From Candidatus Woesearchaeota archaeon (GTDB lineage Archaea > Nanobdellota > Nanobdellia > SCGC-AAA011-G17 > JACPIM01): DNA of 43,174 bases. The notes under the pieces are model-generated. The model did not search any database. It worked only from the letters and a program-made list of their open reading frames with translations, and was not told the origin of the DNA. The position numbers and the translations under genes are program-made. Positions within the stretch are counted from its first letter, which is position 1; each line of letters starts with the position of its first letter. The stretch is taken from the NCBI GenBank assembly GCA_016185635.1, contig JACPNF010000077.1:1-43174 (forward strand). The letters run 5' to 3'. This document shows, piece by piece, positions 1,957-31,767 of this stretch.

Positions 1957-2033
1957 AAGATAAAAAATAAAAACCTTAACTTTTTTAAGTATTTCTGTAG
2001 AAATCCCGAAAAGTTTTCGGAAAACAAGAATAG

Positions 2034-2309
2034 TTATACTATTGCTGCTTCTTTAATTAATTGGTTTAGTTTTTTATTATTAGCAAAAACCCATATTATT
2101 TTATCATCTTCAAACATAATCTTGTTTGACCTCTCTAAATAATCCAGTATTAGCTTAAAAGTCTGATACTGCATCTGCTTAGGAAGGCTTTTCCATAATT
2201 CCATTTTTGTAAGGTAATCTTTGCTGTTTTGAATAGTTTTTTCTACCATCAAGATAGAATCCAACCTAGGATAATGCAAAATAATCATTTCTTGTTTAGG
2301 TTTCATCAT
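2034..2309 (-). CDS. hypothetical small protein, possibly winged-helix
   Basis: 91-aa ORF. The wHTH guess comes only from its size and helix-rich pattern. Confidence 0.4.
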   Translation of the reverse strand: MMKPKQEMIILHYPRLDSILMVEKTIQNSKDYLTKMELWKSLPKQMQYQTFKLILDYLERSNKIMFEDDKIIWVFANNKKLNQLIKEAAIV

Positions 2310-2398
2310 TGTATATATCTATACAATTACTAATATATAAAATTTTTGTTTTTTAATTAGTACTGCAAAAGAGAATTTAAGAATCTAATAAAAGAAAT

Positions 2399-2842
2399 TT
2401 AGTCTATTTTACAATTAAACTTCTCAGCAGCTACTCTAAACATTTCATAAGTTTCATCAAAATTTTGACCCTGAACTGTAAAACTAGAAATGTAATGATA
2501 ATCTAAATAAATCCTACCTAACTTAATGCCTTCTGGTAAACCTATCTCTTTTTTAATATCTTCCATAATTTTCTTTAGTTTAACATTATCAACATCTGGA
2601 GCAAAAATACCATTTTCTATTAATTTTTTAGAGACTACTGTACTCAAATAATGTTTTCCTACCTTTAAAAATTGAGGAGATATCAAATTAAAAGAATATA
2701 AACCATCTTTCTTATCAAAAGTCACCACAAATTCAGAACCTGTTTGAGCTTGTTTAATAGCCTGCAAATGTTCTCCTGAAAGGATTTTTTTTTCAAATCC
2801 TTCTCTTTCAAATTTTTCAACTGCTTGCTCCAAGGTATCCAT
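2399..2842 (-). CDS. hypothetical protein, paralog A of 3427-3945
   Basis: The track ORF runs 2399-2869; the likely true start is MDTLEQAVEKFEREGFEK at 2842. It shares N-terminal (MDTLE.A...F.E.GFEK) and C-terminal (ETYE.F...AE....KID) blocks with 3427-3945. Confidence 0.6.
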   Translation of the reverse strand: MDTLEQAVEKFEREGFEKKILSGEHLQAIKQAQTGSEFVVTFDKKDGLYSFNLISPQFLKVGKHYLSTVVSKKLIENGIFAPDVDNVKLKKIMEDIKKEIGLPEGIKLGRIYLDYHYISSFTVQGQNFDETYEMFRVAAEKFNCKID

Positions 2843-2898
2843 TTTAATCAACCATAAACTCCAAAACATAGTTTTTAAGTCTTTCCATAAGAGAAAAG

Positions 2899-2919
2899 TT
2901 TAAATAATCTACAATTGTA
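2899..2919 (+). promoter_or_regulatory. TATA-like box plus 10-bp palindrome upstream of the antitoxin gene
   Basis: TTTAAATAA lies at 2899-2907, about 28 nt before the ATG at 2931 (leaderless geometry). The perfect palindrome TACAATTGTA at 2910-2919 lies between box and start, a plausible autoregulatory operator. Confidence 0.35.
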
Positions 2920-2930
2920 TACATAAGTAT

Positions 2931-3167
2931 ATGGAAACAACAATTAGGATAAAACAAGGTACTAAAGAAGAACTTGACAAGTATAGGCAATATAAAAATG
3001 AAAGTTATAATGAGGTAATCGGAAAAATTCTGTATATAATTAAAGTTTCCGAAAAGAATCCGAAATTAAGTAAAAAAACAATTAAGGAAATAAAAGAAGC
3101 TAGAGAAAGAATTAAAAAAGGTGAGTATTATACTGAGGAAGAATCTAAAAAAATACTTGGCCTTTAG
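2931..3167 (+). CDS. type II antitoxin (RelB/CopG-like)
   Basis: 78-aa ORF directly abutting a RelE/ParE toxin (stop 3165-3167, toxin ATG 3169). The C-terminal KKGEYYTEEESKKILGL is typical of archaeal antitoxins. Confidence 0.6.
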   Translation: METTIRIKQGTKEELDKYRQYKNESYNEVIGKILYIIKVSEKNPKLSKKTIKEIKEARERIKKGEYYTEEESKKILGL

Positions 3168-3168
3168 G

Positions 3169-3417
3169 ATGTATAAACTAATTTTTGAAAAAAGAGCTTT
3201 AAAAGACTTAGATAAATTTGAAAAGCATATAAAAGAAAGAATTTGGAACAAGCTTCAAGAATGCAAGGAAAATCCATTTAGATTTTTAGAGCCGTTAATT
3301 GAAATTGAAGGATTTAAATTAAGGCTAGGAGATTATAGACTTATAATTGATATTGATAAAGAAATAAAGATATTAAAAGTTATAAAAGTAGGTCATAGAA
3401 AAAATATTTATGATTAA
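3169..3417 (+). CDS. RelE/ParE-family type II toxin
   Basis: From the internal ATG at 3169: MYKLIFEKRALKDLDKF...NPF...FKLRLGDYRLIIDID..IKILKVIKVGHRKNIYD, the canonical RelE/StbE signature. Confidence 0.8.
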   Translation: MYKLIFEKRALKDLDKFEKHIKERIWNKLQECKENPFRFLEPLIEIEGFKLRLGDYRLIIDIDKEIKILKVIKVGHRKNIYD

Positions 3418-3426
3418 TTAAAAATC

Positions 3427-3945
3427 TTAGTCTATTTTATAACCAAGCCTTTCAGCAGTTAATTTGAATTTTTCATAAGTTTCTCTAAAGTCTTTTCCCT
3501 TTGCATAAACAAGTAAATTAAAAGCAATCGCAAGTTTAGGAATACCTAAATCTACATCTTCAGGCAATTCTAAGCTTCTTTTAAATTCATCCAAAATTTG
3601 TTTAATTCCATCATTTATTCCGCTTTCAGCAATTAACCTCTCAACCCTGTCTTTTATGTCATCTTGAACTTTTTTTGGTTTTGGAGAATCAGCAACTATT
3701 GAATCCATAATCCTGAAAGTATAAGTTCCTGGCTCAAGTGGAATATATCTGTTTGGTCCTTTTATAAAATGCCCTATAACATTAAAATTACTTGGAGATA
3801 AATGTAAACCATGTATAATTACATCTTCTATTCTACCTTCTGATAAATTTAATTCTTTAAAAAAAACGATATGGCTGTCATACTCAAAAGTTTTTTCAAA
3901 TCCTTTTTCCCAAAAATTTATTAAAGCCTTTTCCAGAGTATCCAT
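3427..3945 (-). CDS. hypothetical protein, paralog B of 2399-2842
   Basis: 172-aa ORF whose shared terminal blocks with 2399-2842 can be aligned by eye. Confidence 0.6.
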   Translation of the reverse strand: MDTLEKALINFWEKGFEKTFEYDSHIVFFKELNLSEGRIEDVIIHGLHLSPSNFNVIGHFIKGPNRYIPLEPGTYTFRIMDSIVADSPKPKKVQDDIKDRVERLIAESGINDGIKQILDEFKRSLELPEDVDLGIPKLAIAFNLLVYAKGKDFRETYEKFKLTAERLGYKID

Positions 3946-3976
3946 AATTATTTAAAAGAAAATAAGTTTATTAATT

Positions 3977-4479
3977 TTGTTAAAAATGGATCCAAACAAA
4001 GCTCATTACGTTACTGCAACAGCCATTATAATAAAAGATGGAAAATTTCTTATAACTAAAAGATCTCCAAATGAAAAGGCATTTCCAAACTTGTGGACAG
4101 TTCCAGGCGGAAAATTAGAGCAAAAAGATTATATAAACAAACAAAAAGATACAAAAGACTGCTGGTATAATGCAATAGAAAACCTGCTTAAAAGAGAAGT
4201 AAAAGAGGAAACAAACTTAGAGATAAAAAACATAAAAATATCTTACAAGCCTGGTTTTCATAAGGCCTGACAACATTCCTGTTGTTGTTCTTAGCTTTTT
4301 TGCAAACCATCATAAAAGTAATATAAAACTTTCTTCAGAATTGACAGAATATGCATGGGTTACATTAGAAGAAGCTAAAAATTATGACTTAATTAGTGGT
4401 TTATGAAGAGCTTGAAATGTTAGATAATCATTTGAATAGAAATGTTCAAAAAGAATGGAAGAAAGATAAAAATGCTTAA
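3977..4479 (+). pseudogene. NUDIX hydrolase gene disrupted by two +1 frameshifts
   Basis: Frame 1 (3977-4270) carries Nudix box elements (PGGKLE...REVKEETNLEI) and stops at 4268. Frame 2 continues from 4236 (KYLTSLVFIRPDNIPVVVLSFFANHH...YAWVTLEEAKNYDLISGL) and stops at 4404. Frame 3 runs from 4402 (YEELEMLDNHL...KDKNA) to 4479. The shifts sit at an A5 run (4234-4238) and near the T3 run at 4400-4402. Confidence 0.7.
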
Positions 4480-4503
4480 AAAGGCCACATTACAAAAATT
4501 ATT

Positions 4504-5691
4504 ATGGATATTTCAGTCTCAGGTCATACAGAAAAAATCAAATATGCAGTTAGAAACATTGCAAGAAGAGCTAAAGAACTTGAAAAGCAGGGAAAAAGAA
4601 TTCTTTATCTGAATATAGGGGATCCTGCAAAATATGATTTTAAGGTTCCAGGGCATATCGTCAATGCTCATTGTGAGGCTATTTGTGCTGATAAAAATTA
4701 TTACGGCTTTTCTTCAGGAGTAGATGAAGCAAGAGAAGCAATTGCAAAGGATTGTAGGAAAAAAGGTTTCAAAAACCTTAGCTTAGAAAATATAATAATA
4801 ACAACTGGAATAAGCGAAGGTATTGATATCTTATTAAATGTTTTGCTTAATCCTGGTGATAATATCTTAGCCCCTTCTCCAAATTATCCTTTATATGATA
4901 TAGTAGCTAATAAAATAGGGGCTCAAGTTGTTCCTTATTATTTAGACGAAGAAAATGAATGGCAACCAGATATAAGAGATATGAAAAGAAAAATTAATGA
5001 CAGAACAAAAGCTATCCTTGTTATTAATCCAAACAACCCAACTGGGGCAGTATATAAAAAAGAAACTTTGCAGCAGATAATAGAATTGGCTGCAGAAAGA
5101 AAAGTCCCCATTATATCTGATGAGATTTATGATAAGCTTCTTTTTGATGAAGAAATCCATATTCCATTAGCTTCGATGACTGATGAAATTCCAGTGATTA
5201 CATTTAACGGCTTGTCAAAAAACTATCTTGCGCCTGGTTGGAGAATAGGGTGGATTATTGAAAGCAACATAAATCCCAGAAGTCAGTTTGCAGCTACAAT
5301 GAGCAATATGGTTGATGCACGTCTTTCAAGCCCTACACCAGCGCAATTTGCAATTAAAGCAGCCCTTGAAGGTTCACAGGATAATTTGGCAAGCACAATC
5401 AGTAAAATGCAGGAAAGAAGGAATATTGCTTATGAAAGGCTGAATAAACTTAATGGAATAAGTTGTGTAAAGCCAAAGGGAGCTTTTTATGCTTTTCCAA
5501 GAATAAACTCTGATAAATATGGTACTGATGAAGAATTTGCTTTAGGTTTATTGCAAAATGAAGGGGTTGTAGTTGTTCATGGAAGTGGTTTTGGCCAGAA
5601 GCCTGGAACAAAACATTTTCGTTTGGTTTTCCTGCCAAAGCCTGATATTTTGCATGAAGCCTTTGACAGAATTGAAAGATTTGTAGCTTGA
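4504..5691 (+). CDS. PLP-dependent class I/II aminotransferase (alanine/aspartate aminotransferase-like)
   Basis: 395 aa with LNIGDPAKYDF, NPNNPTG and the SKNYLAPGWRIG lysine motif. Confidence 0.85.
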   Translation: MDISVSGHTEKIKYAVRNIARRAKELEKQGKRILYLNIGDPAKYDFKVPGHIVNAHCEAICADKNYYGFSSGVDEAREAIAKDCRKKGFKNLSLENIIITTGISEGIDILLNVLLNPGDNILAPSPNYPLYDIVANKIGAQVVPYYLDEENEWQPDIRDMKRKINDRTKAILVINPNNPTGAVYKKETLQQIIELAAERKVPIISDEIYDKLLFDEEIHIPLASMTDEIPVITFNGLSKNYLAPGWRIGWIIESNINPRSQFAATMSNMVDARLSSPTPAQFAIKAALEGSQDNLASTISKMQERRNIAYERLNKLNGISCVKPKGAFYAFPRINSDKYGTDEEFALGLLQNEGVVVVHGSGFGQKPGTKHFRLVFLPKPDILHEAFDRIERFVA

Positions 5692-5710
5692 TGACGAATA
5701 TGACAAAAAG

Positions 5711-5995
5711 TCAGATAGTTAAATAATCATTAATAATTTTCTTTGTATCTTCTAAAGAAACCTTTCTGAAAATAATCCCTTCAGGATAAATAGCAATTGT
5801 AGGCCCAAAATTGCAGTGCCCTAAACATTTGGTTTTTGTGACATTAAACAATCCCATTAAGCCCTTAGAATTAATATGCTCTCTTAAAATTCTTAAAATC
5901 TCATGTCCTTCCTTTCTTCCGCAGCTTTCTCCTTCATCCCTTTCATTAATGCATACAAATATATGTCTTTTATATTTTAATTCTATTTGCTCCAT
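5711..5995 (-). CDS. thioredoxin-like [2Fe-2S] ferredoxin
   Basis: 94 aa with HIFVCINER..CG...KTKCLGHCNFGP..IYPEGI, the Cys pattern of (2Fe-2S) ferredoxin-domain proteins. Confidence 0.65.
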   Translation of the reverse strand: MEQIELKYKRHIFVCINERDEGESCGRKEGHEILRILREHINSKGLMGLFNVTKTKCLGHCNFGPTIAIYPEGIIFRKVSLEDTKKIINDYLTI

Positions 5996-6033
5996 GAAAG
6001 TATAGGAAAGAAAAGATTTAATTAAATTTCTAT

Positions 6034-6393
6034 ATGCTCAAAAATATGGAAAATAAAAAAGTGCACTGGAATTCAGCTATACTGACAATAAATCCAAAAG
6101 AAATCCAAAAACATGATGGGACTATAATCAGAACTTTATTTGATGATGTAAAAAAAGTTCTTTTAGTAGATGTTATAAGAGAACTTGATTCTTTAGAAAG
6201 AAAGATTACATTTAGTCATTATCCTGAAGAATGTCATGAAAATGTTCAAGAATTAAACCCTGATGAGATGCCCCAGCCCATCAAGGATTTATATCAGGAT
6301 TTTGAAGTTAAGGAAGCTTCAGAACTTGTTGGAAGAAAGATTGTTGGTTTATATTTCTATAATAGTCTTGTAGGGATTAGAAAAATAGAATAA
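6034..6393 (+). CDS. hypothetical protein
   Basis: 119-aa ORF with no recognisable motif. Confidence 0.4.
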   Translation: MLKNMENKKVHWNSAILTINPKEIQKHDGTIIRTLFDDVKKVLLVDVIRELDSLERKITFSHYPEECHENVQELNPDEMPQPIKDLYQDFEVKEASELVGRKIVGLYFYNSLVGIRKIE

Positions 6394-6405
6394 TTTTTTT
6401 CTTTG

Positions 6406-6533
6406 GTACGTGTTTAGCTCCTAAAATCTATTTTTGTTCTATAAAACTTACCTATGCATTTTAAATTTTGTGAAAAAATTTGACCCATCAAAAACCTCAT
6501 ATTTTGTATTTCTGAGATGAGCTAAACACATAC
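6406..6533. mobile_element. candidate 128-bp MITE-like insertion
   Basis: 15-bp terminal inverted repeats (GTACGTGTTTAGCTC at 6406-6420, GAGCTAAACACATAC at 6519-6533; 14/15 complementary) are flanked directly by the 8-bp direct repeat TTTCTTTG (6398-6405 and 6534-6541). Confidence 0.4.
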
Positions 6534-6592
6534 TTTCTTTGATAAGATTTATATACCTTTTCAGCCTTATTTAACCATAAAGAGGTGATATA

Positions 6593-6790
6593 ATGGCTAA
6601 GAAACAAAATTGGGATTTGGTGGCACTTGTTTTAGTAATTGTAGGTGGTCTTAATTGGGGGCTTGTAGGTTTATTTGATTTTGACCTTGTAGCTGTAGTA
6701 TTAGGGGCAGTGCCAGTTGTTCAAAGGCTTGTATACGTGTTAGTAGGGCTTTCTGCAGCATATATGTTATATTCAGCAGTTAAGAAGTAA
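6593..6790 (+). CDS. DUF378-family small membrane protein
   Basis: 65 aa with VGGLNWGLVGLFDFDLVA.. and two TM helices. A strong SD-like AAGAGGTGAT lies 5 nt upstream of the ATG. Confidence 0.7.
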   Translation: MAKKQNWDLVALVLVIVGGLNWGLVGLFDFDLVAVVLGAVPVVQRLVYVLVGLSAAYMLYSAVKK

Positions 6791-6792
6791 AC

Positions 6793-8097
6793 CTATTTCT
6801 TTTTTATTTTTTTCATGACATTCTGCATAGGGTTTTTTATTCCCCTGCAGAAAAAGTCAGGCTGGCATACAGCCATACTTTTATAGTAACTAACATTATC
6901 ACAGTTAGGTGGAAGAATTTCCTCTTTTTGTCTTTTGCTCCAGTTGACCTGTGATTTTATGTAACCTTCTCTTAAAGGCTCATAATTTAACTTGTTCCAC
7001 TCAAGCAGTCTTCTTTCAATCTCATTAAAATCCCAACCCATTTTTCTTAAGAAATTAATTAAGATAAAAACAGACCTTTTCCTACCATCTTCTTTTGAAC
7101 CTTTTAGCAGTAGATGCATGCACGGCGGAAATAATTCCTCATTAATAGCTGTTGTAGGTAGTTCATATTCTCTCTTTTCTCTAAGAGAATTAGTTTCATT
7201 GCTTATTTGTTTTTTAAAGTCTTCTTTTATTATTTTTTTAGAATTTTCATCAAAAGCCTCAATAAGAAGAGCAGAAGCATCCTTTTCTTTCCCTTTATAT
7301 TCCAAGAAACCCATATTGACATTGACTTTGTCTATTGAAGCATTTTCTTTATTAAACTTTAAGACCCCAGCTAATTCAATTGGAATGCTTACAAGACCGC
7401 TTTTCTCATTAAGGCTGTAAACAGACCTGAATAAATGCCTGCTGGAAATTAAGACAGAATCAATTTCAATAACAGAATAAGGATTAAATTCATCATTTTC
7501 TTTTAAGTCTTCTTCTATTTTGTTTAATTTCTCTGCAAGCTCCTTTAGCTTGAAGTTATCAAGTATCTTGTCTCTTAAGTAATCTTTAATTGAATTTTTT
7601 ATATAAGAGTTGACAATTCTTACACCTTCAGGAAACCAAGACTTAATGTCTCTGTTATGGACATTATCTGGAAAGCTTTCAAAAGGTATGCCAATATGCA
7701 TTCCATTGTTTCCTGAAAATTTTAAAGAGATGTTTTTTACATCCTTGTATTTTAAAAATTCTATTATCAAATTTGCGCATATCTTGGAAACCTCGAATAT
7801 TTTTGTATCCAAATCAATAATTAAATCAAATCCTGTCCTTAATTCATCAAGCTGTTTCTGGGTCATGCCTGTTTTTAATTTTAAAGGATCATTAAATCGT
7901 TCAAGGGAAACATGAAAAGAGGTTGCTCCCTGCTTTGCAAGCTCTAAAATATCATTTTCATATTCAAGAACATCAGGCCGTTTTCCAAATCCCTTTTCTC
8001 CGAATTTTACTGCAATTTCCCTGTTTCTTGCAAGGTGAAATATCTCTTTTTGCACATCTTTCCTGCTGTAGAATTTTAATATATTATAGTCTATCAA
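6793..8097 (-). CDS. DNA primase, single-chain PriS catalytic domain fused to PriL-like Fe-S domain
   Basis: 434 aa. The N-half has AEP motifs DLIIDLD and SGNNGMHIGIPF. The C-half has FPPCMHLLLKG...GRKRSVFILINFLRKMGW plus Cys in PPNC, AVCQP and FFCRG (4 Cys, PriL C-terminal-domain-like). Confidence 0.7.
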   Translation of the reverse strand: MIDYNILKFYSRKDVQKEIFHLARNREIAVKFGEKGFGKRPDVLEYENDILELAKQGATSFHVSLERFNDPLKLKTGMTQKQLDELRTGFDLIIDLDTKIFEVSKICANLIIEFLKYKDVKNISLKFSGNNGMHIGIPFESFPDNVHNRDIKSWFPEGVRIVNSYIKNSIKDYLRDKILDNFKLKELAEKLNKIEEDLKENDEFNPYSVIEIDSVLISSRHLFRSVYSLNEKSGLVSIPIELAGVLKFNKENASIDKVNVNMGFLEYKGKEKDASALLIEAFDENSKKIIKEDFKKQISNETNSLREKREYELPTTAINEELFPPCMHLLLKGSKEDGRKRSVFILINFLRKMGWDFNEIERRLLEWNKLNYEPLREGYIKSQVNWSKRQKEEILPPNCDNVSYYKSMAVCQPDFFCRGIKNPMQNVMKKIKKK

Positions 8098-8201
8098 TTT
8101 TCCCCCCTAAGATATTAAAAAATAATCTTATTTATAAGAATTATTATAGGATTATTTAACTATGCACATACCATAGGATAGTTGCAATTCTTAGGTTTGC
8201 T

Positions 8202-8489
8202 CTAGACTTTTTCTAATCTGGATATTGTAAATGCATCGTTTTGTCGATATTTATCCCTTAATCTTTTCAGAACTTCTTCATCAAAAGTTGATAAATACCA
8301 TTTTTGTCCGCTAAAACCTGTAATATCATGCTCCCCAGAAGATGCTATGCAATTGTAAAATACTCCGTTTTCACCAAGAAAATCTTCTAAATCTTTACCT
8401 CTTCTTTCAAACTCGCGTGGTCCCTCTGGCCCTCTAATTAGACCAGGACTTAAATTAATTCCAATAAGATATCTTTGTTTTTCTGTCAT
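8202..8489 (-). CDS. hypothetical protein
   Basis: 95-aa ORF with no motif recognised. Confidence 0.4.
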   Translation of the reverse strand: MTEKQRYLIGINLSPGLIRGPEGPREFERRGKDLEDFLGENGVFYNCIASSGEHDITGFSGQKWYLSTFDEEVLKRLRDKYRQNDAFTISRLEKV

Positions 8490-8526
8490 AACTATAAAGT
8501 AGTTTCAATATTTATAAACTTTTGCA

Positions 8527-9030
8527 TCATGTCTTCCCAGCATCCATCTTAGCTTCATAATCTACTAAATATTCAAGATAACCCTCTTTTTCTTGTTCAG
8601 CTTCTTCTTTAATTTTTTCATAGCTTAATTTTTTAATATTATAAATTGGAGAAGAATACTCCTTTTCTCTCCAAAATCTTTCTTTATGGGGAAAATATAG
8701 TGTAAAATTTCCCTCTTCTGTAACTTCTCCATCAGGGTTTCCATCAGAATAAGTAATATTGACTGGCATGTCTTTTTCGCTTCTTTCAAGATTATCCTTA
8801 AAAATGCCCTCATAAATTGAGAGCATTTCAAAGTAAGTTATAATTTTAGCAAATAATTCCTTTCTTTCTTTGGGAAAATTTAAATTTCTCAAGAGATATA
8901 AAGATTTTAATATTACTTTTTTCTTCAATGTCTTGATAGAATCTCTGTCAACACAGTCTAATAGCTTTAATCTTAATGCAAATATTTTCTCGCTTAAAGA
9001 ATCATTCATAATTTTTAAAAAACCATACAA
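8527..9030 (-). CDS. hypothetical protein
   Basis: 167-aa ORF with no motif recognised. Confidence 0.4.
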   Translation of the reverse strand: MYGFLKIMNDSLSEKIFALRLKLLDCVDRDSIKTLKKKVILKSLYLLRNLNFPKERKELFAKIITYFEMLSIYEGIFKDNLERSEKDMPVNITYSDGNPDGEVTEEGNFTLYFPHKERFWREKEYSSPIYNIKKLSYEKIKEEAEQEKEGYLEYLVDYEAKMDAGKT

Positions 9031-9208
9031 AAACTATAAAAGTTGCTGGTTGAGATAATCTTGAAATTTTCTTTATACTACCTTATATTATATTTAAGAA
9101 TATAAACCTTAGTTGCAGTATTTACTACAATTAGCATATCAAAATCATTTTTTAATAATCAAAATAGAAAATATGACAAACCAGTTATCTTCTTTTCATT
9201 TTGTAAGA

Positions 9209-9466
9209 TTATTCATGCAAGCATTTATGTCTTATTTGATTGCCATAGGAATTTACTACCTTTCTTTCACCAGCATAAGGGCATAATCCGCTAAAATCAT
9301 TATCATCCTCGCAAGGTATTATACTGCAATATGTATCCCAGCCATCTGTTTTTTTGTACGGTGAAGAATTAATTCGAAGCAATCTTAGGCATTCTCGTAT
9401 TATATTTACTAAGTCTTTTATTTCTTCTTTTTTCCTTATTATCTTTAACTTGTCTTCATCCATCAT
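9209..9466 (-). CDS. hypothetical Cys-rich small protein
   Basis: 85 aa with 5 Cys in the C-terminal half. Its start overlaps the stop of 9463-9885 by 4 nt. Confidence 0.45.
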   Translation of the reverse strand: MMDEDKLKIIRKKEEIKDLVNIIRECLRLLRINSSPYKKTDGWDTYCSIIPCEDDNDFSGLCPYAGERKVVNSYGNQIRHKCLHE

Positions 9467-9885
9467 TTTTTTGCTATAGGATACTGTTTTTTATCTGCAA
9501 AAGGCCCATATTTTTCTTCTGCAAGTTCATTTGCCCACATTTCAGTATAAAACTTTCTATCTTCTAAAAAATAACAGTTAAATATGCTTGGAAAAGCAAC
9601 AATAGGATAATAAAATATTCCAAGTTTTTTAAATTGTTCTACATGCCCGCTTTCATGTTTGTATAGATCATCGACTTCATCATTAAGCCCAAAGTCTTTA
9701 TTTTTACCCATGACTATAAAAGGTCCTGGAGTAAAAGAATAACCAGGAAAAAAGTCGGTAATAATAACTTTGTTTCCATAAACTTCTTCTATTCGAGCAT
9801 GATTTCTTACTTGGAAAAAAAAGCCACCTAATAAAATAGCTGAACTTAGTATAATTCTTTCAACTAATGATTTCCTTTTGGTCAT
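9463..9885 (-). CDS. putative membrane-anchored zinc metallopeptidase (HExxH)
   Basis: 140 aa with an N-terminal TM helix and an HESGH motif. It is the middle gene of a three-gene minus-strand unit. Confidence 0.45.
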   Translation of the reverse strand: MTKRKSLVERIILSSAILLGGFFFQVRNHARIEEVYGNKVIITDFFPGYSFTPGPFIVMGKNKDFGLNDEVDDLYKHESGHVEQFKKLGIFYYPIVAFPSIFNCYFLEDRKFYTEMWANELAEEKYGPFADKKQYPIAKK

Positions 9886-9903
9886 GATTAAAAATGATAT
9901 CCT

Positions 9904-10947
9904 TTAGTTAACTTTTCTGGTTTCTTTTTTTGCTATATCAAGCAAGTGGGTTAATTTGTTTTTTTCTGCTAATTCTAAAATCCCTGTTGCAAACCCATAT
10001 TTATTATCAAGATTTGGATACATGACACTATTAATGCCAGCTATTCTGAGAACACCGTCAACCATGACAGCACCAACTGATCCTCCACTCATTCCACTTG
10101 ATAATGTTGCCTCAATAAAAACCCTGTCTTTATTGTCAAATGGTAGTGGTTCCTTTCCTAGATTAGTTATAATTCCCTGGCTTACATGCTTGCCCCACGA
10201 AAAATCTATGATTCCAAATGGAGTCTTGTAAATAGCATGTGGATAACCTATGGCATAAACTTCTTGGCCAACCCTGAGCATATCTCTGTCTACAAAAAAG
10301 TTATATGGCTTGAATTCTTCTTCTGGCAGGTCAGTTCCTATTAAAATAGCTGCATCTTTATCATCGTCTTTTGCAAGCTGCCTTAACCTTGCAACTTTTA
10401 TTTCTTTTATTTTTTTATTTCCTTGAAAGTCCAAGAGAATTTTTCCGCATTTATTTTTTTCATATTCATACTTGACAATATAAACCTCCTGTTTGAAAGT
10501 AGTCTCTACTACCTTAATTAATCCGCTATAATTTTCAGAAATTTCAGTTTCATCATCTGGAAGGCAATGAGCAGCTGTTCCAAAATAGGATATTCTCCCA
10601 TCTCTTGCAAAATTAAATGCGCTTCCAAAAAGTACTCCCTGGGCATACCTGGATCCTATTTCAGTGCCATCTTTTGTCAATAGAGTTTGTTTCCTCGTAA
10701 TCTCATTTATTATTTTATAGTCAGCATTTACAAGTTTCTCCAACCCATCTAATTTTTTTTCTTCTGCGCTTAATTCTCCTGAAGCAACTGAAACAACATT
10801 GCAAAAATTATCTGGTTCTATTGCTACAGCATTTTCTCTTGGTTGGTGTTCTATAACCTTGTCATTAAGATCCTTCTTTAGTTTAGTGTAACTTCCGCAT
10901 CCCGCAGCTAGTGCGCCTGCCAGAACAAACTGATATAATCTTCTCAT
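9904..10947 (-). CDS. trypsin-like (S1/chymotrypsin-fold) serine protease, probable lipoprotein
   Basis: 347 aa with a lipobox-like N-terminus MRRLYQFVLAGALAAGCGS. Catalytic triad contexts are GTAAHCL (His), DKDAAIL (Asp) and SGMSGGS (Ser). Confidence 0.75.
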   Translation of the reverse strand: MRRLYQFVLAGALAAGCGSYTKLKKDLNDKVIEHQPRENAVAIEPDNFCNVVSVASGELSAEEKKLDGLEKLVNADYKIINEITRKQTLLTKDGTEIGSRYAQGVLFGSAFNFARDGRISYFGTAAHCLPDDETEISENYSGLIKVVETTFKQEVYIVKYEYEKNKCGKILLDFQGNKKIKEIKVARLRQLAKDDDKDAAILIGTDLPEEEFKPYNFFVDRDMLRVGQEVYAIGYPHAIYKTPFGIIDFSWGKHVSQGIITNLGKEPLPFDNKDRVFIEATLSSGMSGGSVGAVMVDGVLRIAGINSVMYPNLDNKYGFATGILELAEKNKLTHLLDIAKKETRKVN

Positions 10948-11233
10948 TAATTATTCCCCTCGAAAAAAAATTGAAGTATATTTAATGTAGATTTAATCAT
11001 TTTTTCATTATATATTATTGATTATTTATATTTAAATTAAGGTAGTAGTAAAAGCTACAACTGGCATCAATATCCTGTTTCTAAAGAAAAAAGTTATGCC
11101 CTCCTCCCAGCCATGAATTGCTGGGTTTCCAACAGAAGCAGCTAAATTAAGTACTGCTTCTGAATATAGTTCCTGCTTCATTGACACGAGCCTTTATAGT
11201 TTTTGGTGAAACTTTCTCAATATTTCTGTTTTC

Positions 11234-11275
11234 TTTTCCGAGGTTTTCTTTTTCAAAGAAAAGCTCAGGTCTTAC
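11234..11275. repeat. copy R1 (partial) of palindrome-cored repeat family
   Basis: TTTTCCGAGGTTTTCTTTTTC (11234-11254) is identical to 39161-39181. It is followed by the palindrome TTTTCTTT-TTC-AAAGAAAA. Confidence 0.6.
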
Positions 11276-11665
11276 AGTATCTCCAACAGGCGTTAAGTTC
11301 GGGCTCGTCCAGCCCTACTTTGAATATGTTTTTTGGATTAAGGTTTTTTGTTTTCTTGCCTATCGCTTGTTACAGCTTTGTATGGCAAGATTATTTTTAA
11401 TCCAATTAAGCTTAAATTGTTTTTCAGTTATTTAAGCTTTATTGTAATTCATCACTATTCAAGGAATATTTTCGGAAAGTTTGCGATTTCACCGGAAGAT
11501 TTCCGGAATTTATAAAAATATTACGAAAATTAATTACCCTAATTCATCCATATTAAACTTTTGAAAAAAGTTTAATCAAAAATAGATTAAAGAACATGGT
11601 TTTCTTGGGCACTGCTAATAAAAAATGCTTTAAAGACTTTAATAGCAGGGCTTGAAGAAATATGA

Positions 11666-23335: not shown

Positions 23336-23546
23336 CCTCCTGGGTTTTTTGTATTTTACCCTGCTTTGAATTTAATATTGTTAATATTTTTGCAATTGTT
23401 TTTTTAGTATTTTTAATCAGGGCTGGTTTTTCTAAGGTAGTTCCTCTTGCCCTTTTTGAATTAAGTATTATAAGCTCTTTTCTTAAGTCAAGTATTTTAG
23501 TCTTTAATTTCTCTTGATCCATTTTCTTCAGTTCTTCAAACTTCAT
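23316..23546 (-). CDS. rpl29: 50S ribosomal protein uL29
   Basis: 76 aa with L..K..DLRKEL..L....A.G..LEKP..IK..KK.IA.ILT, following rps3. Confidence 0.85.
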
Positions 23547-24418
23547 TCTTCTTTAGCCTTATCCTCATTAGTTTCTTGTATTTCTTCTTTTACAAGTTCT
23601 TGTATTTCTTCTTTTGCAGTTTCTTTTTCCACTTCTGTTTCTTTTGCTTCTTCACTTGGTGCAGGTTCTTTTGCTTCGGCTTTCTTTTTTCTTTTTTTAG
23701 TTTCCTTTTTTTCAGAGTCTTTTGGTGCTTCCACTTCTAAGGAAAGCTCTGCTGCAATTTTCTCTGCTTCTTCTTTTACCTCAACTTTTTTTCCTGTTTC
23801 TTTTTCAATTAGGTTCATTTCATTATCTAAAATTAATATCTTGTCTGGCAGAACAATATCAGGAGTCATTATGCTGACCTTGATGCCTATGGTTCCAGAC
23901 TTTAAGTTGGCAGTAGATACAGCCCTCTTGACTTCATTTTGTGAGATATATCCTGATTTTTTCAAATGCCCGGCTGAAAATCTCCATGATCTTGCCCTTG
24001 CGCTTGGAACTTTTCCAGATATAACAATTTCAGCACCCAATGCTCCGCTGTCAAGAATCTGCTGTAAAGTTTTATACCCTACTGATTTAAATCTTTTTGA
24101 TCCGAACCTTACTAATGTGGAAGATATTCTGTCAGCAACATAATTTGCGTCAATCATTGGATTAATTAATTCTCCAATCTCTATCTGTGGATTTTCAACA
24201 TTAAATCTCTTGTTCAAAACAGTAGTTAATTGCTTGATATTTTCTCCTTTCCTTCCTACAACAAGGCCTGGTCTTGTCGTGTATATAATTACCTTTTCAC
24301 CCAAAGGAGTTCTTTGTATTTCAGTATGAGAATATCCAGTACCAACCAGCTTTGACTTTATGTATTCCTGAATCTGGTATTCCTTTACTTTCTGGTTTAC
24401 AAACTGCCTTTCAATCAT
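23543..24418 (-). CDS. rps3: 30S ribosomal protein uS3 with K/E-rich C-terminal extension of about 85 aa
   Basis: MIERQFVNQKVKEYQIQEYIKSKL...RTPLGEKVIIYTTRPGLVVGRKGENI (KH domain). The tail contains the KEEIQE tandem. Confidence 0.95.
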   Translation of the reverse strand: MIERQFVNQKVKEYQIQEYIKSKLVGTGYSHTEIQRTPLGEKVIIYTTRPGLVVGRKGENIKQLTTVLNKRFNVENPQIEIGELINPMIDANYVADRISSTLVRFGSKRFKSVGYKTLQQILDSGALGAEIVISGKVPSARARSWRFSAGHLKKSGYISQNEVKRAVSTANLKSGTIGIKVSIMTPDIVLPDKILILDNEMNLIEKETGKKVEVKEEAEKIAAELSLEVEAPKDSEKKETKKRKKKAEAKEPAPSEEAKETEVEKETAKEEIQELVKEEIQETNEDKAKEE

Positions 24419-25248
24419 CTTGTTTTCTCCAAAATTTTTGCATGGCGTACCCCGAGGTCAGCATTCAAGTATGAAGGATTGCCACTACAAAGCAGATAAA
24501 CCCCACCAACATTAACAACAAACCCAACAGCTCTTCCTTCTTTTGGTCTCCAATAATATAAATTTCCTTTTTTCACATTTTTTCTTGGCAGTCTTTGAGG
24601 CGTAGGATTATTTAAAAAATCATCTAAATTTATTCCTGGAAGCCTGTCTTCCATTAATGTATCTGAACCTAAAGGTTCAGTAACCTTAACTAATCCTCCT
24701 TTGGAATTAAACCTAGAACAAGTAACTTGAAGATTTCTCTTGCTGTCTAAAGAATACATGTCTTCAAACCATTCTGCTCTCCAAGGACTTTTTGGTTTTG
24801 CAACATCATTAAATTCCATTTCTAATCTTTTTTTATTTATTTTTTTTCCGTTTCCATTGTAAACTTTTATTTTTCCTTCTGAGCCATCCCTTAATGTTCT
24901 TAAAAATTCAACACCAATATAAAGAGGAAGAGTAAAACCTCCAAAACCTGAATTAATTGCTATTGCCTGTTCATGGTTTATAGTTCCAATAAATCCTTGC
25001 TCATTATCTCTTAAGTTTAAGCCCAATTCCTCTTGAATTGTACTGATTAAAGGAGAAAAACACAATCTCCTTAATCCAACCCCTATATCAACTTGATGGG
25101 AATCATTTGCTGGTAAAAGAACATAATTTTCTGGAGCTTCTGCTTCTTTTATTTCTTCATATTCTCTCTTTAGGTTTTTTAATTTTGTAGAAATCCACTT
25201 ATGTACTCTTGGATTTTCTTCAGATAATCTATCTAAATCTATGTTCAT
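24415..25248 (-). CDS. hypothetical protein, paralog 1 of ribosomal-operon insert family
   Basis: 277-aa ORF between rpl22 and rps3 with 4-nt overlaps at both ends. Its C-terminal half aligns with 26166-26990 (TLMEDR..GI..DD...NP....LPRKNVK.G.LYYW.P.EG...GF......L.C.GNP....ADLGVR.AKIL). Confidence 0.7.
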   Translation of the reverse strand: MNIDLDRLSEENPRVHKWISTKLKNLKREYEEIKEAEAPENYVLLPANDSHQVDIGVGLRRLCFSPLISTIQEELGLNLRDNEQGFIGTINHEQAIAINSGFGGFTLPLYIGVEFLRTLRDGSEGKIKVYNGNGKKINKKRLEMEFNDVAKPKSPWRAEWFEDMYSLDSKRNLQVTCSRFNSKGGLVKVTEPLGSDTLMEDRLPGINLDDFLNNPTPQRLPRKNVKKGNLYYWRPKEGRAVGFVVNVGGVYLLCSGNPSYLNADLGVRHAKILEKTR

Positions 25249-25766
25249 TTTTTAATTTCATTCTCCTCAGTTTTTGCAGGAACATTTTCTTTGTTAGCTT
25301 TCTCAGTTTTGTTGAAGCTCTTCTCACCAGTTTTTTCCTGAAGGTTTTTTTTCAAAAAAGCTTCCTTTGCAAAAATTTCTACGCAGCTTCTTTTCATTAC
25401 TCTCCCCCTGTGCCTGCTGTAATGCCATGCTTTTGGACCTTTGTTTGCAATTACTTTGTCAATAACTAATCCTTCCGCATTTAATCCAATGTTTTTTGCA
25501 TTTGCTTCAAGTGTATTCAACAAGCCTACAAAATACTTTGAAGCTTTTACAGGATAAAACCCAGGTCCAATTTTTCCTTTTTTATGTCCTCTTTTGTGCT
25601 TGAATCTCTTTAAAGGTATGACAAATTTTTGGTCCATTACAGATGTTAGTATGCTTTTTGCTTTTGCAACATCTTTTCCCTTGATAAAGCTGCATATTTC
25701 AATTGCGTGCTTTGTCGAAATAGGCATGTCGTTTCCCTTCACTCTTGCAATTGTTTTATCTGTCAT
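25245..25766 (-). CDS. rpl22: 50S ribosomal protein uL22 with repeat-derived tail
   Basis: ARVKGNDMPISTKHAIEICSFIKGKDVAKAKSIL...; the tail is KEAFLKKNLQEKTGEKSFNKTEKANKEN.... Confidence 0.9.
   Translation of the reverse strand: MTDKTIARVKGNDMPISTKHAIEICSFIKGKDVAKAKSILTSVMDQKFVIPLKRFKHKRGHKKGKIGPGFYPVKASKYFVGLLNTLEANAKNIGLNAEGLVIDKVIANKGPKAWHYSRHRGRVMKRSCVEIFAKEAFLKKNLQEKTGEKSFNKTEKANKENVPAKTEENEIKK
25293..25366. repeat. copy R6 of repeat family (inside uL22 tail)
   Basis: TCAGTTTTGTTGAAGCTCTTCTC...TTTTTTCCTGAAGGTTTTTTTTCAAAAAAGCTTCC. Confidence 0.65.
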
Positions 25767-25768
25767 GT

Positions 25769-26164
25769 TTATTTCTTTGTTGTGGCAGCACTTGATTTTG
25801 TAGCTCCTACACCTGGAGCAGAGTGCTGTACTTTTCTCCTTGTTAAAGTAAATTCGCCTAAATAATGTCCGAGCATTTCAACAGTCATTATAATAGGAAC
25901 AAAATCCTTTCCAGTATGGACAAAAATAGTAGTGCCAAGCATTTCAGGAACTACAATCATGTCCCTGCAGTGGGTCTTTATATTTTTCTTGATGGATCCT
26001 TCATTATATTTTTTAATTTTTGCAAGAAGTTTTTTGTGCTGTTCAGTAAGCCCTCTTTTCAATGATCTCCTTTGCCGTGCATTTGTTAATTTCATATAGT
26101 CAGCTGTACTAATTCCTGCAAACTCTTTCTCAGTTTTTCCCTTGAATAATGATTCTTTTGCCAT
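25769..26164 (-). CDS. rps19: 30S ribosomal protein uS19
   Basis: KTHCRDMIVVPEMLGTTIFVHTGKDFVPIIMTVEMLGHYLGEFTLTRRKVQHSAPGVGAT. Confidence 0.95.
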   Translation of the reverse strand: MAKESLFKGKTEKEFAGISTADYMKLTNARQRRSLKRGLTEQHKKLLAKIKKYNEGSIKKNIKTHCRDMIVVPEMLGTTIFVHTGKDFVPIIMTVEMLGHYLGEFTLTRRKVQHSAPGVGATKSSAATTKK

Positions 26165-26165
26165 T

Positions 26166-26990
26166 TTAATCCAAATCTATCCCTCTCCCCATCTCAAAAA
26201 TATCTTGTAGATAGCTTCCACCTATTTTTCTTATTCTTTCTTTCTTTTCTTCTTCAGATATTTTTGGTTTTTCTTCTGATTTTATCTCTTTTTGGTGTTT
26301 TATTTGATAAATAGTTTCCCTGTCTAAAATTTTTGCCCGACGTACCCCGAGGTCAGCACCCGAGCCCAAAGGATTGCCATCGCAGACCAGGTCAGCCCTG
26401 AAAGCATCAGCACCAAACCCAGCGACTTTTCCTTCTCTTGGTTTCCAATAATATAACCTTCCTTCTTTCACATTTTTTCTTGGCAAACCACTTTGATTTG
26501 GGTTTTTTATCCAATCATCGAAATCTATTCCCGAAATTCTGTCTTCCATTAAAGTATTTTCATCTAAACCTATTAACACTTCTATTAATTTTCCTGAAGA
26601 ATCAAATTGATGAGTACTCACCCCATACAAATGCCCAGTAATTATTGAATATTGATGATCAAGTCTTGTTCCTCTCCAAGGATTTTTTAATGCTATTAAT
26701 TCATCCAAAAATCTCTTTTTTAGTTCATTTGAAATTCTGTTTCCCTTGCCATTATAAACAACTTCTTCTGATTTTAATAATCCAATAGCTTCTACAAGTT
26801 CATTTGGATTTAACATAAAAGATCTTTCTTGCTTTAATGCTTCTTTTGTTTGAGGGTGTTTTTTATCTCTATGTGATAATTCCATTATTTCTATCCCCAA
26901 GGTAGGGTGGTTATCCCAGTAGTTTCCACTAGTTATTTCTGGCAAAATGATATAATTTTCCAGATTCACTTCTTGAATTAAATTAGTCAT
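26166..26990 (-). CDS. hypothetical protein, paralog 2 of ribosomal-operon insert family
   Basis: 274-aa ORF between rpl2 and rps19 with 1-nt spacers. It is paralogous to 24415-25248, and the 18-nt string CGTACCCCGAGGTCAGCA (encoding ADLGVR) is shared. Confidence 0.7.
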   Translation of the reverse strand: MTNLIQEVNLENYIILPEITSGNYWDNHPTLGIEIMELSHRDKKHPQTKEALKQERSFMLNPNELVEAIGLLKSEEVVYNGKGNRISNELKKRFLDELIALKNPWRGTRLDHQYSIITGHLYGVSTHQFDSSGKLIEVLIGLDENTLMEDRISGIDFDDWIKNPNQSGLPRKNVKEGRLYYWKPREGKVAGFGADAFRADLVCDGNPLGSGADLGVRRAKILDRETIYQIKHQKEIKSEEKPKISEEEKKERIRKIGGSYLQDIFEMGRGIDLD

Positions 26991-26991
26991 T

Positions 26992-27714
26992 TTACTTTCT
27001 TCCAGTTCTCCTTGCAGCTACTTTTCCTACTTTTCTTCCAGGAGGAGTTCCTCTTGCAACAACTCTTATCTTTGAATGCGCACGTCCCCTTCCGCTTCCA
27101 AAAGGATGATTAAGAGCATTCATAGCTACTCCAGAAGTTCTTGGCCAGTATTTTCCCCTTGCTCTCATTATATGATGTTGTTTTCCTGCTTTTACAATAT
27201 ATTTTTCAGTCCTTCCAGATCCGGATATGATCCCTATTGCTGCCCTGCATTCAGGATTAAACTTTTTTTGTTTCTTGGAAGGCAGTTCAATTAAAATAAA
27301 ATCTTCGCTAGCGCTTACTACTTTTGAAAATGTTCCAGCTGCCCTACAGAATTTTCCACCGTCTCCAGGAGAGCTCTCTATATTATATATTAAAGTTCCT
27401 TCAGGAATTTGTTTCAAGGGAAGTACGCTTCCCTTATTTAAGCTTGATTTTATGCCGGTTTCAACAATATCTCCAGTTTTAACCTCATTTGGTGCTATTA
27501 TATAAGCCTCTTCGTTGTTGTCATAAACAACTTTAGCCAATGGAGCAGTATGCCCTGGGCATTTAACTAAGTCAACTATTTTTCCTTTCAGCACAGATTC
27601 TTTTTCAATTTTGTCATATCCTCTGTGCCTAACATCAGCAAGGTATCTATGTGAAGGAGCTACAAATATTGGGCTTCCGCTTCCTCTCTTCCTTGTTAAT
27701 GTTCTCTTTCCCAT
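26992..27714 (-). CDS. rpl2: 50S ribosomal protein uL2
   Basis: RGSGSPIFVAPSHR...GGKFCRAAG...MNALNHPFGSGRG. Confidence 0.95.
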   Translation of the reverse strand: MGKRTLTRKRGSGSPIFVAPSHRYLADVRHRGYDKIEKESVLKGKIVDLVKCPGHTAPLAKVVYDNNEEAYIIAPNEVKTGDIVETGIKSSLNKGSVLPLKQIPEGTLIYNIESSPGDGGKFCRAAGTFSKVVSASEDFILIELPSKKQKKFNPECRAAIGIISGSGRTEKYIVKAGKQHHIMRARGKYWPRTSGVAMNALNHPFGSGRGRAHSKIRVVARGTPPGRKVGKVAARRTGRK

Positions 27715-30030: not shown

Positions 30031-30897
30031 ATGAAAAGGCTTACTATATTAATAGTAAATTACAAAAATAGCAGAGATACAGTTGAATTAATTGAAAACC
30101 TAAAATATTCAACATTTAATGACTTTAATATAGTTGTATGGGATAATAATTCTCCCAGGGATGAGTTCTTTAAAAGATTAGAAGAAAATAAGGAAATAAG
30201 ACTCATAAAAAATGATAAAAACATAGGCCTTACTGGAGCAGTTAATGAATCTTTAAGGCATATAACAACAAGATATGTTCTTTTGTTGAATCCTGATATT
30301 ATTATAGACAAAAATGCTGTAAAAGAACTTTTAGATTTAATTGAAAGTGATGAAAAAATAGCATTTGTTGGCGGCTCAATTTATAGTTTCATAAATAAAG
30401 ATAAAATAGATGCTTTTGGCGGAAAGATAAATTTCTTCACAGGCATAGGAAAGCCGTTAAAAAATGAAAATAAAATTAGGGAATTAAAATTTGGTGAATA
30501 CTGCGATGCCTGCATCTTGATGTTTAACAAGGATATTTTTGAAGAACTAGGAAAATATGATAACAGGTTTTTTGCTTATGCAGAAACTGAAGATGTATTG
30601 TTTATGGCAATGAAAAAAGGCTACAAAGTTATGATAAATCCAAAAGCAAAAGTATGGCACAAGCAATATGGAAGTTCAGGTGGGGAAAAAAATAAATTTG
30701 TTGTTTATCAGCTGACAAGAAACAGGTTCTTGATGATGAAAAAAAATGTTAATGCATTAAGATTTTTTTTATTTTTAATTATAAACTTCCTATTAATCTT
30801 TCCAGTTCAGTTTTTCTTATTTATTTTCAGAAAGCAGTTTGGCTTGATTCCTTCTTTTTTAAAGGGAATTTTCGATGGTTTGATAGGAAGATACTAA
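30031..30897 (+). CDS. family 2 glycosyltransferase
   Basis: LTILIVNYKNSRDTVELIENL...VVWDNNS...LLNPDII..., with a C-terminal TM segment. Confidence 0.75.
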   Translation: MKRLTILIVNYKNSRDTVELIENLKYSTFNDFNIVVWDNNSPRDEFFKRLEENKEIRLIKNDKNIGLTGAVNESLRHITTRYVLLLNPDIIIDKNAVKELLDLIESDEKIAFVGGSIYSFINKDKIDAFGGKINFFTGIGKPLKNENKIRELKFGEYCDACILMFNKDIFEELGKYDNRFFAYAETEDVLFMAMKKGYKVMINPKAKVWHKQYGSSGGEKNKFVVYQLTRNRFLMMKKNVNALRFFLFLIINFLLIFPVQFFLFIFRKQFGLIPSFLKGIFDGLIGRY

Positions 30898-30918: not shown

Positions 30919-31767
30919 TCATTTTTCAGCTATGAGTTTTCTCTTATTCTTTTCAGGTTCTGCTAAATAATTTTCTGAAGTAGTTATATCTTTGCCAGTT
31001 TCTAATTCAAGTTTCTTTCTTGCATCACCAGCAATCTTACCACCTTTCATGGCAGCAGATTTGTTTTCTTGAAATCCTTGAGTATCTTTTTTTCTTGCAA
31101 TTTCTGTTGTCGAAGCTTCACCAAGCATGTTAAATATTAATTCAAGATCAGTCATATGGTCTCGTAGATTTTCTCTTTTCAGACCTTTGAATTTCTTATA
31201 CTCATCGACAGTCTTGCCAAAAGTGGCTTTACTTATTTCATTAGTCAAAATAGCATAGTCATTATCTTCCTTGACCCCTCTTTTATTCCATTCATCAGTC
31301 AGCTCTTGCCTGATGGCTATGCCCCTTACTCTCTTTTCAATCCATTCTTCAGAATAACCTTTTGCCCTGTAGATCTCTTTCATCCTTGTCTGTGCAAGCT
31401 CTGGGTTTTGTATCTCTTCGACACGCTCGTAGCCGACTTTGGCAAGCCATTGCTTGAACGGCTCTGCCTTTGGTGAAGGAATAGACTGAATAATCCTAAA
31501 TAAGGTTTCTGTATTAGCACAATCAGTTTCATAGAATTTTCCATCTGCAGCCGGTAATTTCAGTTGGTGACAATTTGTCACCACCTCACTTCCTTCTTCT
31601 TTTAGTCTTTGACTGAGCTTATTCCAGTACTTTCTGGCTTTTAGATATTCATCTTGTTCTGTAAGAACTGCAATAATATCAACTACTGAAAAGTGCCACC
31701 CCCCATTATGCCATATCCTTCTTATTTTTTTATCCTGAAAAACAACCAAAGTATTATTTTCAGCCAT
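30919..31767 (-). CDS. Bro-N domain protein (BRO/DinD-like)
   Basis: LVVFQDKKIRRIWHNGGWHFSVVDIIAVL...KAEPFKQWLAKVGYERVEEIQNPELA...; visibly G+C-richer codons than its neighbours. Confidence 0.65.
   Translation of the reverse strand: MAENNTLVVFQDKKIRRIWHNGGWHFSVVDIIAVLTEQDEYLKARKYWNKLSQRLKEEGSEVVTNCHQLKLPAADGKFYETDCANTETLFRIIQSIPSPKAEPFKQWLAKVGYERVEEIQNPELAQTRMKEIYRAKGYSEEWIEKRVRGIAIRQELTDEWNKRGVKEDNDYAILTNEISKATFGKTVDEYKKFKGLKRENLRDHMTDLELIFNMLGEASTTEIARKKDTQGFQENKSAAMKGGKIAGDARKKLELETGKDITTSENYLAEPEKNKRKLIAEK

Follow-up and report, generated by a model that had tools for sequence, protein, structure and literature searches.

The variable proteins of diversity-generating retroelements (DGRs) use a common scaffold to display variable residues as a ligand-binding surface, as described for Mtd, TvpA and AvpA (PMC2408619, PMC5006420, PMC5758913). 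DGRs are prevalent in Pacearchaeota and Woesearchaeota, the role proposed for those of the DPANN archaea is in cell-cell attachment or dynamic interaction with hosts (PMC6349945), and targets remote from their retroelement are documented (PMC5758913). Here we describe two genes, X1 and X2, lying among the ribosomal protein genes of a Candidatus Woesearchaeota contig (JACPNF010000077.1 of assembly GCA_016185635.1; its 43,174 nt, the whole stretch analysed, are called the window). It is highly probable that they are old paralogs from a DPANN family of DGR variable proteins with the C-type lectin fold, X1 being a live or very recently live remote target and X2 a former target that is now fixed; both would be binding proteins whose position in the operon serves their expression.

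The X1/X2 family shares with Mtd of Bordetella phage BPP-1, TvpA of Treponema denticola and TaqVP a C-type lectin scaffold with inserts. The variable region (VR) likewise forms the last C-terminal beta-strands, with a conserved, non-variable 3′ end, like the initiation of mutagenic homing (IMH) sequence, encoding the last strand, and differences between the template repeat (TR) and VR of X1/X2 homologs are likewise restricted to template adenines. By sequence, the family shows no detectable relation to these proteins. Nor was an Avd-type accessory gene noticed; the cassettes of the homologs often have an AAA_5 ATPase and a ~580-aa protein instead, and X1 and X2 themselves lie within a ribosomal operon with no TR or reverse transcriptase (RT) nearby. 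The AvpA-like proteins described by Handa et al. (2016; PMC5006420) share their host group (Nanoarchaeota, Woesearchaeota) with X1 and X2. Their C-type lectin fold is divergent, with CLEC5A-type domains as its nearest neighbours, and their VR is ~27–29 residues long; in some, as in X1, a tail follows the VR, and some of their homologs are outside DGRs. However, the AvpA motifs GXXVVVYAH, HPXXXPFXG and RFXGV are absent from the X1/X2 family consensus, and family profiles run against all PDB sequences found no AvpA match at E≤10 and matched no PDB chain; the X1/X2 family is therefore a separate archaeal variable-protein family.

DGR targets amid ribosomal genes have been glimpsed before in passing, not explained. 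Wu et al. (2018), in a set of candidate phyla radiation (CPR) bacteria and DPANN archaea, reported five DGRs with ribosomal protein genes between the DGR genes, and one “very unusual” target, which has an archaeal/eukaryotic S3 domain and is diversified upstream, at the N-terminal end (PMC5758913). To us this target resembles an X2-like gene overlapping rps3, the two called as one open reading frame (ORF). Those cases differ from ours in that TR and RT were present, and were the basis of detection, whereas the window has neither.

X1 and X2 matched nothing in Pfam, NCBIfam, PHROGs, PADLOC or PDB sequences, whether searched as single sequences or as profiles, which bears out the preliminary description in its failure to recognize a characterized family. 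Word-indexed searches returned just 11 relatives for X2 and 6 for X1, while an exhaustive profile search brought the family to 1,162 clusters at E≤1e-3 (426 at E≤1e-30); all members with a named source are from Pacearchaeota, Woesearchaeota or Nanoarchaeota. No relative was found in viral contigs or in the BFVD structure library. The conserved motifs are PWRAEW, DTLMEDR-PGI, GLPRKNV, G-LYYW-P and C...P......LGVR, and the domain is duplicated within a few of the proteins. No Pfam family recurs in 148 members even at E≤1, among the best 25 of 62 families listed; below third place in that list, no family was matched by more than two members. One member, P0144 (298 aa), has the C-terminal part of Trigger_N (Pfam, 2.9e-15) fused to the C-terminal half of the family sequence. 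Trigger_N is the N-terminal, ribosome-binding domain of bacterial trigger factor; the fusion is probably a chimeric contig or gene call.

Relatives of X1 and X2 are linked to DGRs. An RVT_1 gene lies 280–390 nt downstream of the family gene in five of the 15 GTDB loci that were annotated (L013, L014, L017, L019 and L022), and in each the gap next to the RT holds a repeat of the last ~85 nt of the gene. Mismatches between the two copies fall at TR adenines in 9/9, 10/10, 14/14, 13/14 and 10/11 cases, which is the signature of DGRs. A metagenome scan added 79 loci, and a gapped TR scan then covered 105 loci, yielding 27 distinct TRs that serve 33 family genes, with mismatches confined almost entirely to template adenines; in several cassettes one TR serves two to three targets, and the VR-TR distance ranges from 228 nt to 3.9 kb. 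Where a family gene was flanked on both sides by at least 3 kb (38 distinct genes), the locus has an RT in 21 cases, a TR in 17 and neither in 17. The closest metagenomic relatives of X2 (L026, L027 and L031; 40–42% identity, full length) are all DGR-linked, with mismatches at TR adenines in 12/12 cases for L026, 5/5 for L031, and 11/11 and 10/10 for the two targets of L027. These last two share one TR, from which one of them is 2.9 kb away, so non-adjacent targets occur in the X1/X2 lineage.

The AlphaFold2 model of X2 (pLDDT 90.3) gave weak structural matches in the PDB (E>0.1), with C-type lectin domains, one FGE entry among them, as the commonest class; the weakness is due to extra N-terminal helices and inserts. 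For the minimal member P0010 (185 aa, model pLDDT 94.6) all 50 of the 50 top PDB matches are C-type lectin-like domains (probability 0.85–0.99, target-normalised TM-score mostly ~0.4–0.6), and these include the phage DGR protein Mtd and CLEC5A, the closest neighbour reported for AvpA (PMC5006420). The VR maps to the last beta-strands (residues 240–246, 249–256 and 268–272 in X2). By these models the family has a C-type lectin fold with its variable residues on the C-terminal strands. A likeness to DUF1566/Lcl C-terminal domains had been guessed by eye before, and it stands at the level of the broad fold class, which these and the FGE-sulfatase domains share with X1 and X2, along with an early W..A....MPT..E, an aromatic-rich strand and a final G-[VF]-R, as far as the eye can judge. 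The guess fails at the level of the families: PF07603 (DUF1566/Lcl) and PF03781 (FGE-sulfatase) did not match X1 or X2 at E≤1, nor, among the best 25 of 62 families listed, the 148 members at the same threshold, and the nearest structural neighbours of the X1/X2 family, different from FGE, are animal C-type lectin-like domains.

Both genes have the VR architecture GTCGCT/GCTGTT-GGGTTT...CTCGGGGTACG, with NNY codons where homologous templates read AAY. Within the window CTCGGGGTACG is present at the two VR ends only, kept as in templated homologs. We examined the footprint against the TR of L027, a heterologous reference from a different organism. X1 is changed at 15 of 23 template-A and 6 of 52 non-A positions (Fisher p=5e-6); the contrast is weak for X2, changed at 13 of 23 and 16 of 52 (p=0.03). 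For calibration, non-A mismatches to the best heterologous TR were counted over a 63-nt VR core: VRs with their own TR have a median of 5 (interquartile range 4–7, n=33), and VRs without a TR in the locus a median of 7 (6–9, n=72). X1, with 4, is within the range of templated VRs, while X2, with 13, is outside it. The GC fraction is 0.61 in the VR of X1 and 0.46 in that of X2, against 0.31 in the rest of each gene. These figures suggest that the templating of X1 was recent and that X1 may still serve as a remote target, and that X2 has drifted toward the AT bias of the genome and is probably fixed. We also considered that X1 and X2 might share one TR, since their sequences over codons 234–268 differ mostly at codon positions 1 and 2; this was rejected for the many differences, largely C/T, that do not involve adenine.

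The operon is an archaeal S10/spc ribosomal operon on the minus strand of the window, with the order L3-L4-L23-L2-X1-S19-L22-X2-S3-L29-SUI1-Rpp29-S17-L14-ORF-L24-S4e, onward to SecY; L2, S19, L22 and S3 were assigned by Pfam and the remaining genes named from reading of their translations. The preliminary description, which had the two genes wedged into L2-S19-L22-S3, agrees with the ORFs and Pfam assignments (Table 1): X1 has a 1-nt spacer to each neighbour (TAAAATG at both junctions), and X2 a 4-nt ATGA overlap with each of its own. For X2 the arrangement recurs in a second, independent Logan assembly (SRR12113420, locus L105), where S19-L22-X2-S3-L29 was found at 99.6% DNA identity, so it is not an assembly chimera. 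The paralogy proposed in the preliminary description also holds, at 43% identity over 147 ungapped residues (BLASTP, E=1e-40; X2 129–275 with X1 78–224), and the count given there of 29 identities in 47 positions was correct on recounting. X1 has a tail of ~50 aa, Lys/Glu-rich, C-terminal to the VR. Position in the operon and start/stop coupling imply, as had been proposed, that both genes would be co-transcribed with the ribosomal genes and probably translationally coupled to them.

Table 1. Coordinates of genes, variable regions and other features in the window and in the homologous loci.
Sequence	Feature	Position (nt)	Strand	Evidence or remark
Window	rpl2 (uL2)	26992–27714	-	Pfam Ribosomal_L2_C 1e-40; upstream neighbour of X1
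Window	X1, 274 aa, between rpl2 and rps19	26166–26990	-	ORF; family HMM (hidden Markov model) E=1e-75
Window	X1 VR equivalent, codons 189–217	26340–26426	-	Ends in IMH-like CTCGGGGTACG (26341–26351)
Window	rps19 (uS19)	25769–26164	-	Pfam Ribosomal_S19 6e-28; downstream of X1
Window	rpl22 (uL22)	25245–25766	-	Pfam Ribosomal_L22 8e-14; upstream of X2
Window	X2, 277 aa, between rpl22 and rps3	24415–25248	-	ORF; family HMM E=1e-74
Window	X2 VR equivalent, codons 240–268	24445–24531	-	Ends in CTCGGGGTACG (24446–24456); looks eroded
Window	rps3 (uS3)	23543–24418	-	Pfam KH_2 and Ribosomal_S3_C; downstream of X2
Window	Insert between rpl14 and rpl24, 135 aa	21610–22017	-	From ATG at 22017; no known family
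Window	Putative glycosyltransferase gene	30031–30897		Read from translation; adjoins BRO-N gene
Window	BRO-N domain gene	30919–31767	-	~1 kb beyond start of ribosomal operon
L004	126-aa gene between rps8 and rpl6	5715–6095		No known family; Pacearchaeota ribosomal operon
L009	DGR cassette	3930–5997		AAA_5 confirmed by Pfam
L019	DGR cassette	1904–7683		AAA_5 confirmed by Pfam
L027	DGR cassette	2589–11663
L013	GC-rich hairpin downstream of VR	6765–6830
L014	GC-rich hairpin downstream of VR	6639–6700
L022	GC-rich hairpin downstream of VR	6325–6390
L004, L012, L021	GC-rich hairpin downstream of VR
L022	DGR RT split into two ORFs	6634–7744
L023	Frameshifted family gene, two overlapping ORFs	5457–6246

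In the mechanism that we propose, the RT of a DGR in the relatives would copy a TR of ~85–90 nt into cDNA, misincorporating at adenines, and the cDNA would replace the VR, which comprises the final ~29 codons and ends in CTCGGGGTACG, so that a ligand-binding surface on a constant scaffold would be randomised anew. Copies such as X1 and X2, placed in the S10/spc operon with start/stop coupling, would share the transcription, and probably the translation, of the ribosomal proteins. X1 would be rewritten by a DGR encoded elsewhere in the genome, and X2 no longer.

Several points weigh against this reading. The window was searched by blastn with both VRs, with TR-flank motifs, with an RT HMM (made from four DGR RTs in homologous loci) on all window ORFs of at least 50 aa (E≤1e-3), and with Pfam on ten of the larger ORFs outside the ribosomal block; no RT HMM match, third VR copy or TR-flank motif was found, and thus no RT and no TR within 16–26 kb on either side of X1 and X2. 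A TR/VR pair is for that reason not demonstrated for X1 and X2 themselves, and with so many non-adenine differences between their VRs the two cannot both be templated now by one TR. The VR of X2 is eroded, 11 of its 16 non-A changes being C>T, and it is identical in the strain of L105 despite 12 single-nucleotide polymorphisms (SNPs) elsewhere in 2,954 nt. About half of the well-flanked genes have no DGR nearby, so that members which are fixed and do not diversify may be frequent in the family. Neither X1 nor X2 has a signal peptide or membrane segment, as judged by eye from sequence, so a surface-receptor role is not evident. The lack of TR and RT, both in the window and near 17 of the 38 well-flanked family genes, the eroded and invariant VR of X2, and the AvpA homologs that Handa et al. 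likewise found outside DGRs (PMC5006420) would fit an alternative in which both X1 and X2 descend from DGR variable proteins but have become fixed and domesticated, as constant C-type-lectin-fold binders to which the operon gives constitutive expression. This alternative differs from the reading we favour solely in denying that X1 is still a target, and we take it seriously while doubting it. It does not readily explain why the non-A mismatches of X1 fall below the median of VRs with their own TR, or why its VR has kept so high a GC content in a gene of 31% GC, which indicates little AT drift since it was last templated; and P0002, the sister copy from a different operon, is just as fresh (3 mismatches).

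The preliminary description took X1 and X2 for candidate lineage-specific ribosome-associated or ribosome-biogenesis factors, and the tight translational coupling within the most conserved operon is what such factors might be expected to show. Moreover the closest homolog of X2, P0002 (63% identity), lies in another translation/transcription operon, between RpoD and L18e-L13-S9, with 4-nt overlaps; several family genes or whole DGRs sit at ribosomal-operon borders (L013, L049 and L069 divergent from L3, with the operon uninterrupted; L004 and L087 convergent with SecY; L073 convergent with S9-L13-L18e); and the interleaved ribosomal genes and S3-domain target of Wu et al. (PMC5758913) point the same way. 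This ribosomal association, counted at about seven of ~95 distinct loci, is suggestive, not significant, and copies inside translation operons were found in the window (two) and in L008 (RpoD-L18e) alone among ~100 distinct loci. Most loci have unrelated contexts: family genes follow PolD DP2, an XPD-like helicase, Metallophos genes (two copies in one genome, which has four in total) or GatD/E, or overlap AAA_5. There are multiple copies per genome, the defining and recurrent partner of the family is a DGR with its RT and TR, and one member, 3,104 aa long, has the family domain at residues 2560–2741 and an N-terminus that reads like a signal peptide. We found no similarity of X1 or X2 to a ribosomal or biogenesis family in Pfam or NCBIfam, and we know of nothing in the C-type lectin fold that suggests rRNA or ribosome binding. 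A ribosomal role is thus very unlikely, and the earlier proposal is not upheld; X1 and X2 are most likely ligand-binding proteins and not new ribosome parts. As for absence of the genes from the operon in relatives, which had been named as evidence against such a role, L2-S19-L22-S3 is indeed uninterrupted in L013 and L049, but these, the only relatives in the set that have the operon, are distant (ribosomal proteins 34–55% identical).

The varied positions after conserved genes had also led us to the idea of selfish mobile genes, such as free-standing homing-endonuclease-like elements between conserved genes. Copy number and position do vary, the junctions between or after highly conserved genes are precise, and the sequence upstream of S19 differs between the two strains. 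Against this, neither X1, X2 nor the 148 members have a nuclease, transposase or integrase domain (Pfam, among the best 25 of 62 families listed), there is no PADLOC or PHROGs match and no viral relative, the fold is a C-type lectin domain, and the variable C-terminus is explained by DGR templating. The idea was dropped in view of the RT/TR linkage, the fold and the lack of a nuclease domain, and we give it hardly any credence.

The X1 site itself looks strain-variable, or like a recombination boundary. The L105 contig ends 36 nt upstream of rps19, and when its nt 1–36 are compared with window 26165–26200, the 33 nt upstream of rps19 match neither the 3′ end of X1 nor that of rpl2; in addition, eight of the 12 strain SNPs cluster in the first ~115 nt of rps19 (L105 72–150). 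The window operon has a third inserted gene, between rpl14 and rpl24, with junctions as in X1 and X2 (TAAAATG after L14, ATGA overlap with L24). It had no match in Pfam, NCBIfam, PHROGs or PADLOC, none of the 105 loci has a homolog of it, and its product, being acidic, is not Avd-like. The ribosomal operon of L004 has a further insert, and inserts without known family may be common in DPANN ribosomal operons. Beyond the start of the window operon, next to a putative glycosyltransferase gene, lies a gene for a protein with a BRO-N domain, which is characteristic of viruses and mobile elements.

DGR cassettes of the family, exemplified by those of L027, L019 and L009, often hold, between the genes for the variable proteins or ahead of them, an AAA_5 (MoxR/midasin-like) ATPase and a ~580-aa protein without known family; X1 and X2 have neither partner. 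One subgroup has a GC-rich hairpin (e.g. CGTGCC-GTTA-GGCACG) downstream of the VR, and a conserved motif, GTTTTGCTCGCT, follows ~15–25 nt past it. TRs are preceded by TTGGCTAC or ATTTGCTAC, and their 3′ end is CTCGGAATA(G/A). The hairpin, GTTTTGCTCGCT and the TR-flank motifs are likely DGR RNA and target-recognition elements. The lack of a hairpin after the VR was considered as a mark of inactivity and rejected, templated targets of the same subgroup also lacking it, with ...CGTGTCGCGAAAATTTTT instead. A rigid 80-nt ungapped scan had likewise made the subfamily with the LGVR-x-AKI(L/F) tail seem TR-less (0/21 vs. 24/72, Fisher p=0.001). This was an artefact, because TRs of the subgroup hold a 14–20-nt insert near the 3′ end; the gapped scan recovered those of L026, L027, L031 and L081. 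The frameshifted family gene of L023 and the split RT of L022 look like decaying DGR components. In the three paralogs P0015–P0017 of GCA_053532875.1, variability is ~10-fold higher in the VR than elsewhere in the gene, but at all codon positions; there being no TR to compare, this is uninformative on activity.

X1 and X2 are of a known kind of system, the DGR variable proteins of DPANN archaea, at a noteworthy location and from a large family that domain databases do not yet describe; with more than 1,000 clusters and no Pfam model, that family can now be defined as DGR variable proteins. Two “hypothetical” genes in the most conserved operon gain a testable identity, and targets of mutagenic retrohoming are documented between essential ribosomal genes with start/stop coupling, a setting in which the DGR machinery must be precise enough to spare rps19 and rps3. 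In annotation, ORFs that interrupt L2-S19-L22-S3 in DPANN genomes should not be taken for new ribosomal proteins. The ribosomal-operon position would imply high, growth-linked expression of a variable protein. It is conceivable, though we think it improbable, that the ribosomal-protein and RNA-polymerase operons of DPANN archaea are a recurrent, selected home of DGR targets, with X1-type copies rewritten in trans; if so, these tiny symbionts would make hypervariable lectin-fold proteins at the pace of ribosome synthesis, and proteins of the X1/X2 type would be an abundant intracellular variable binder or would act at the ribosome itself. The fresh X1 beside the eroded X2 in one operon offers a natural comparison of live and decayed DGR targets.

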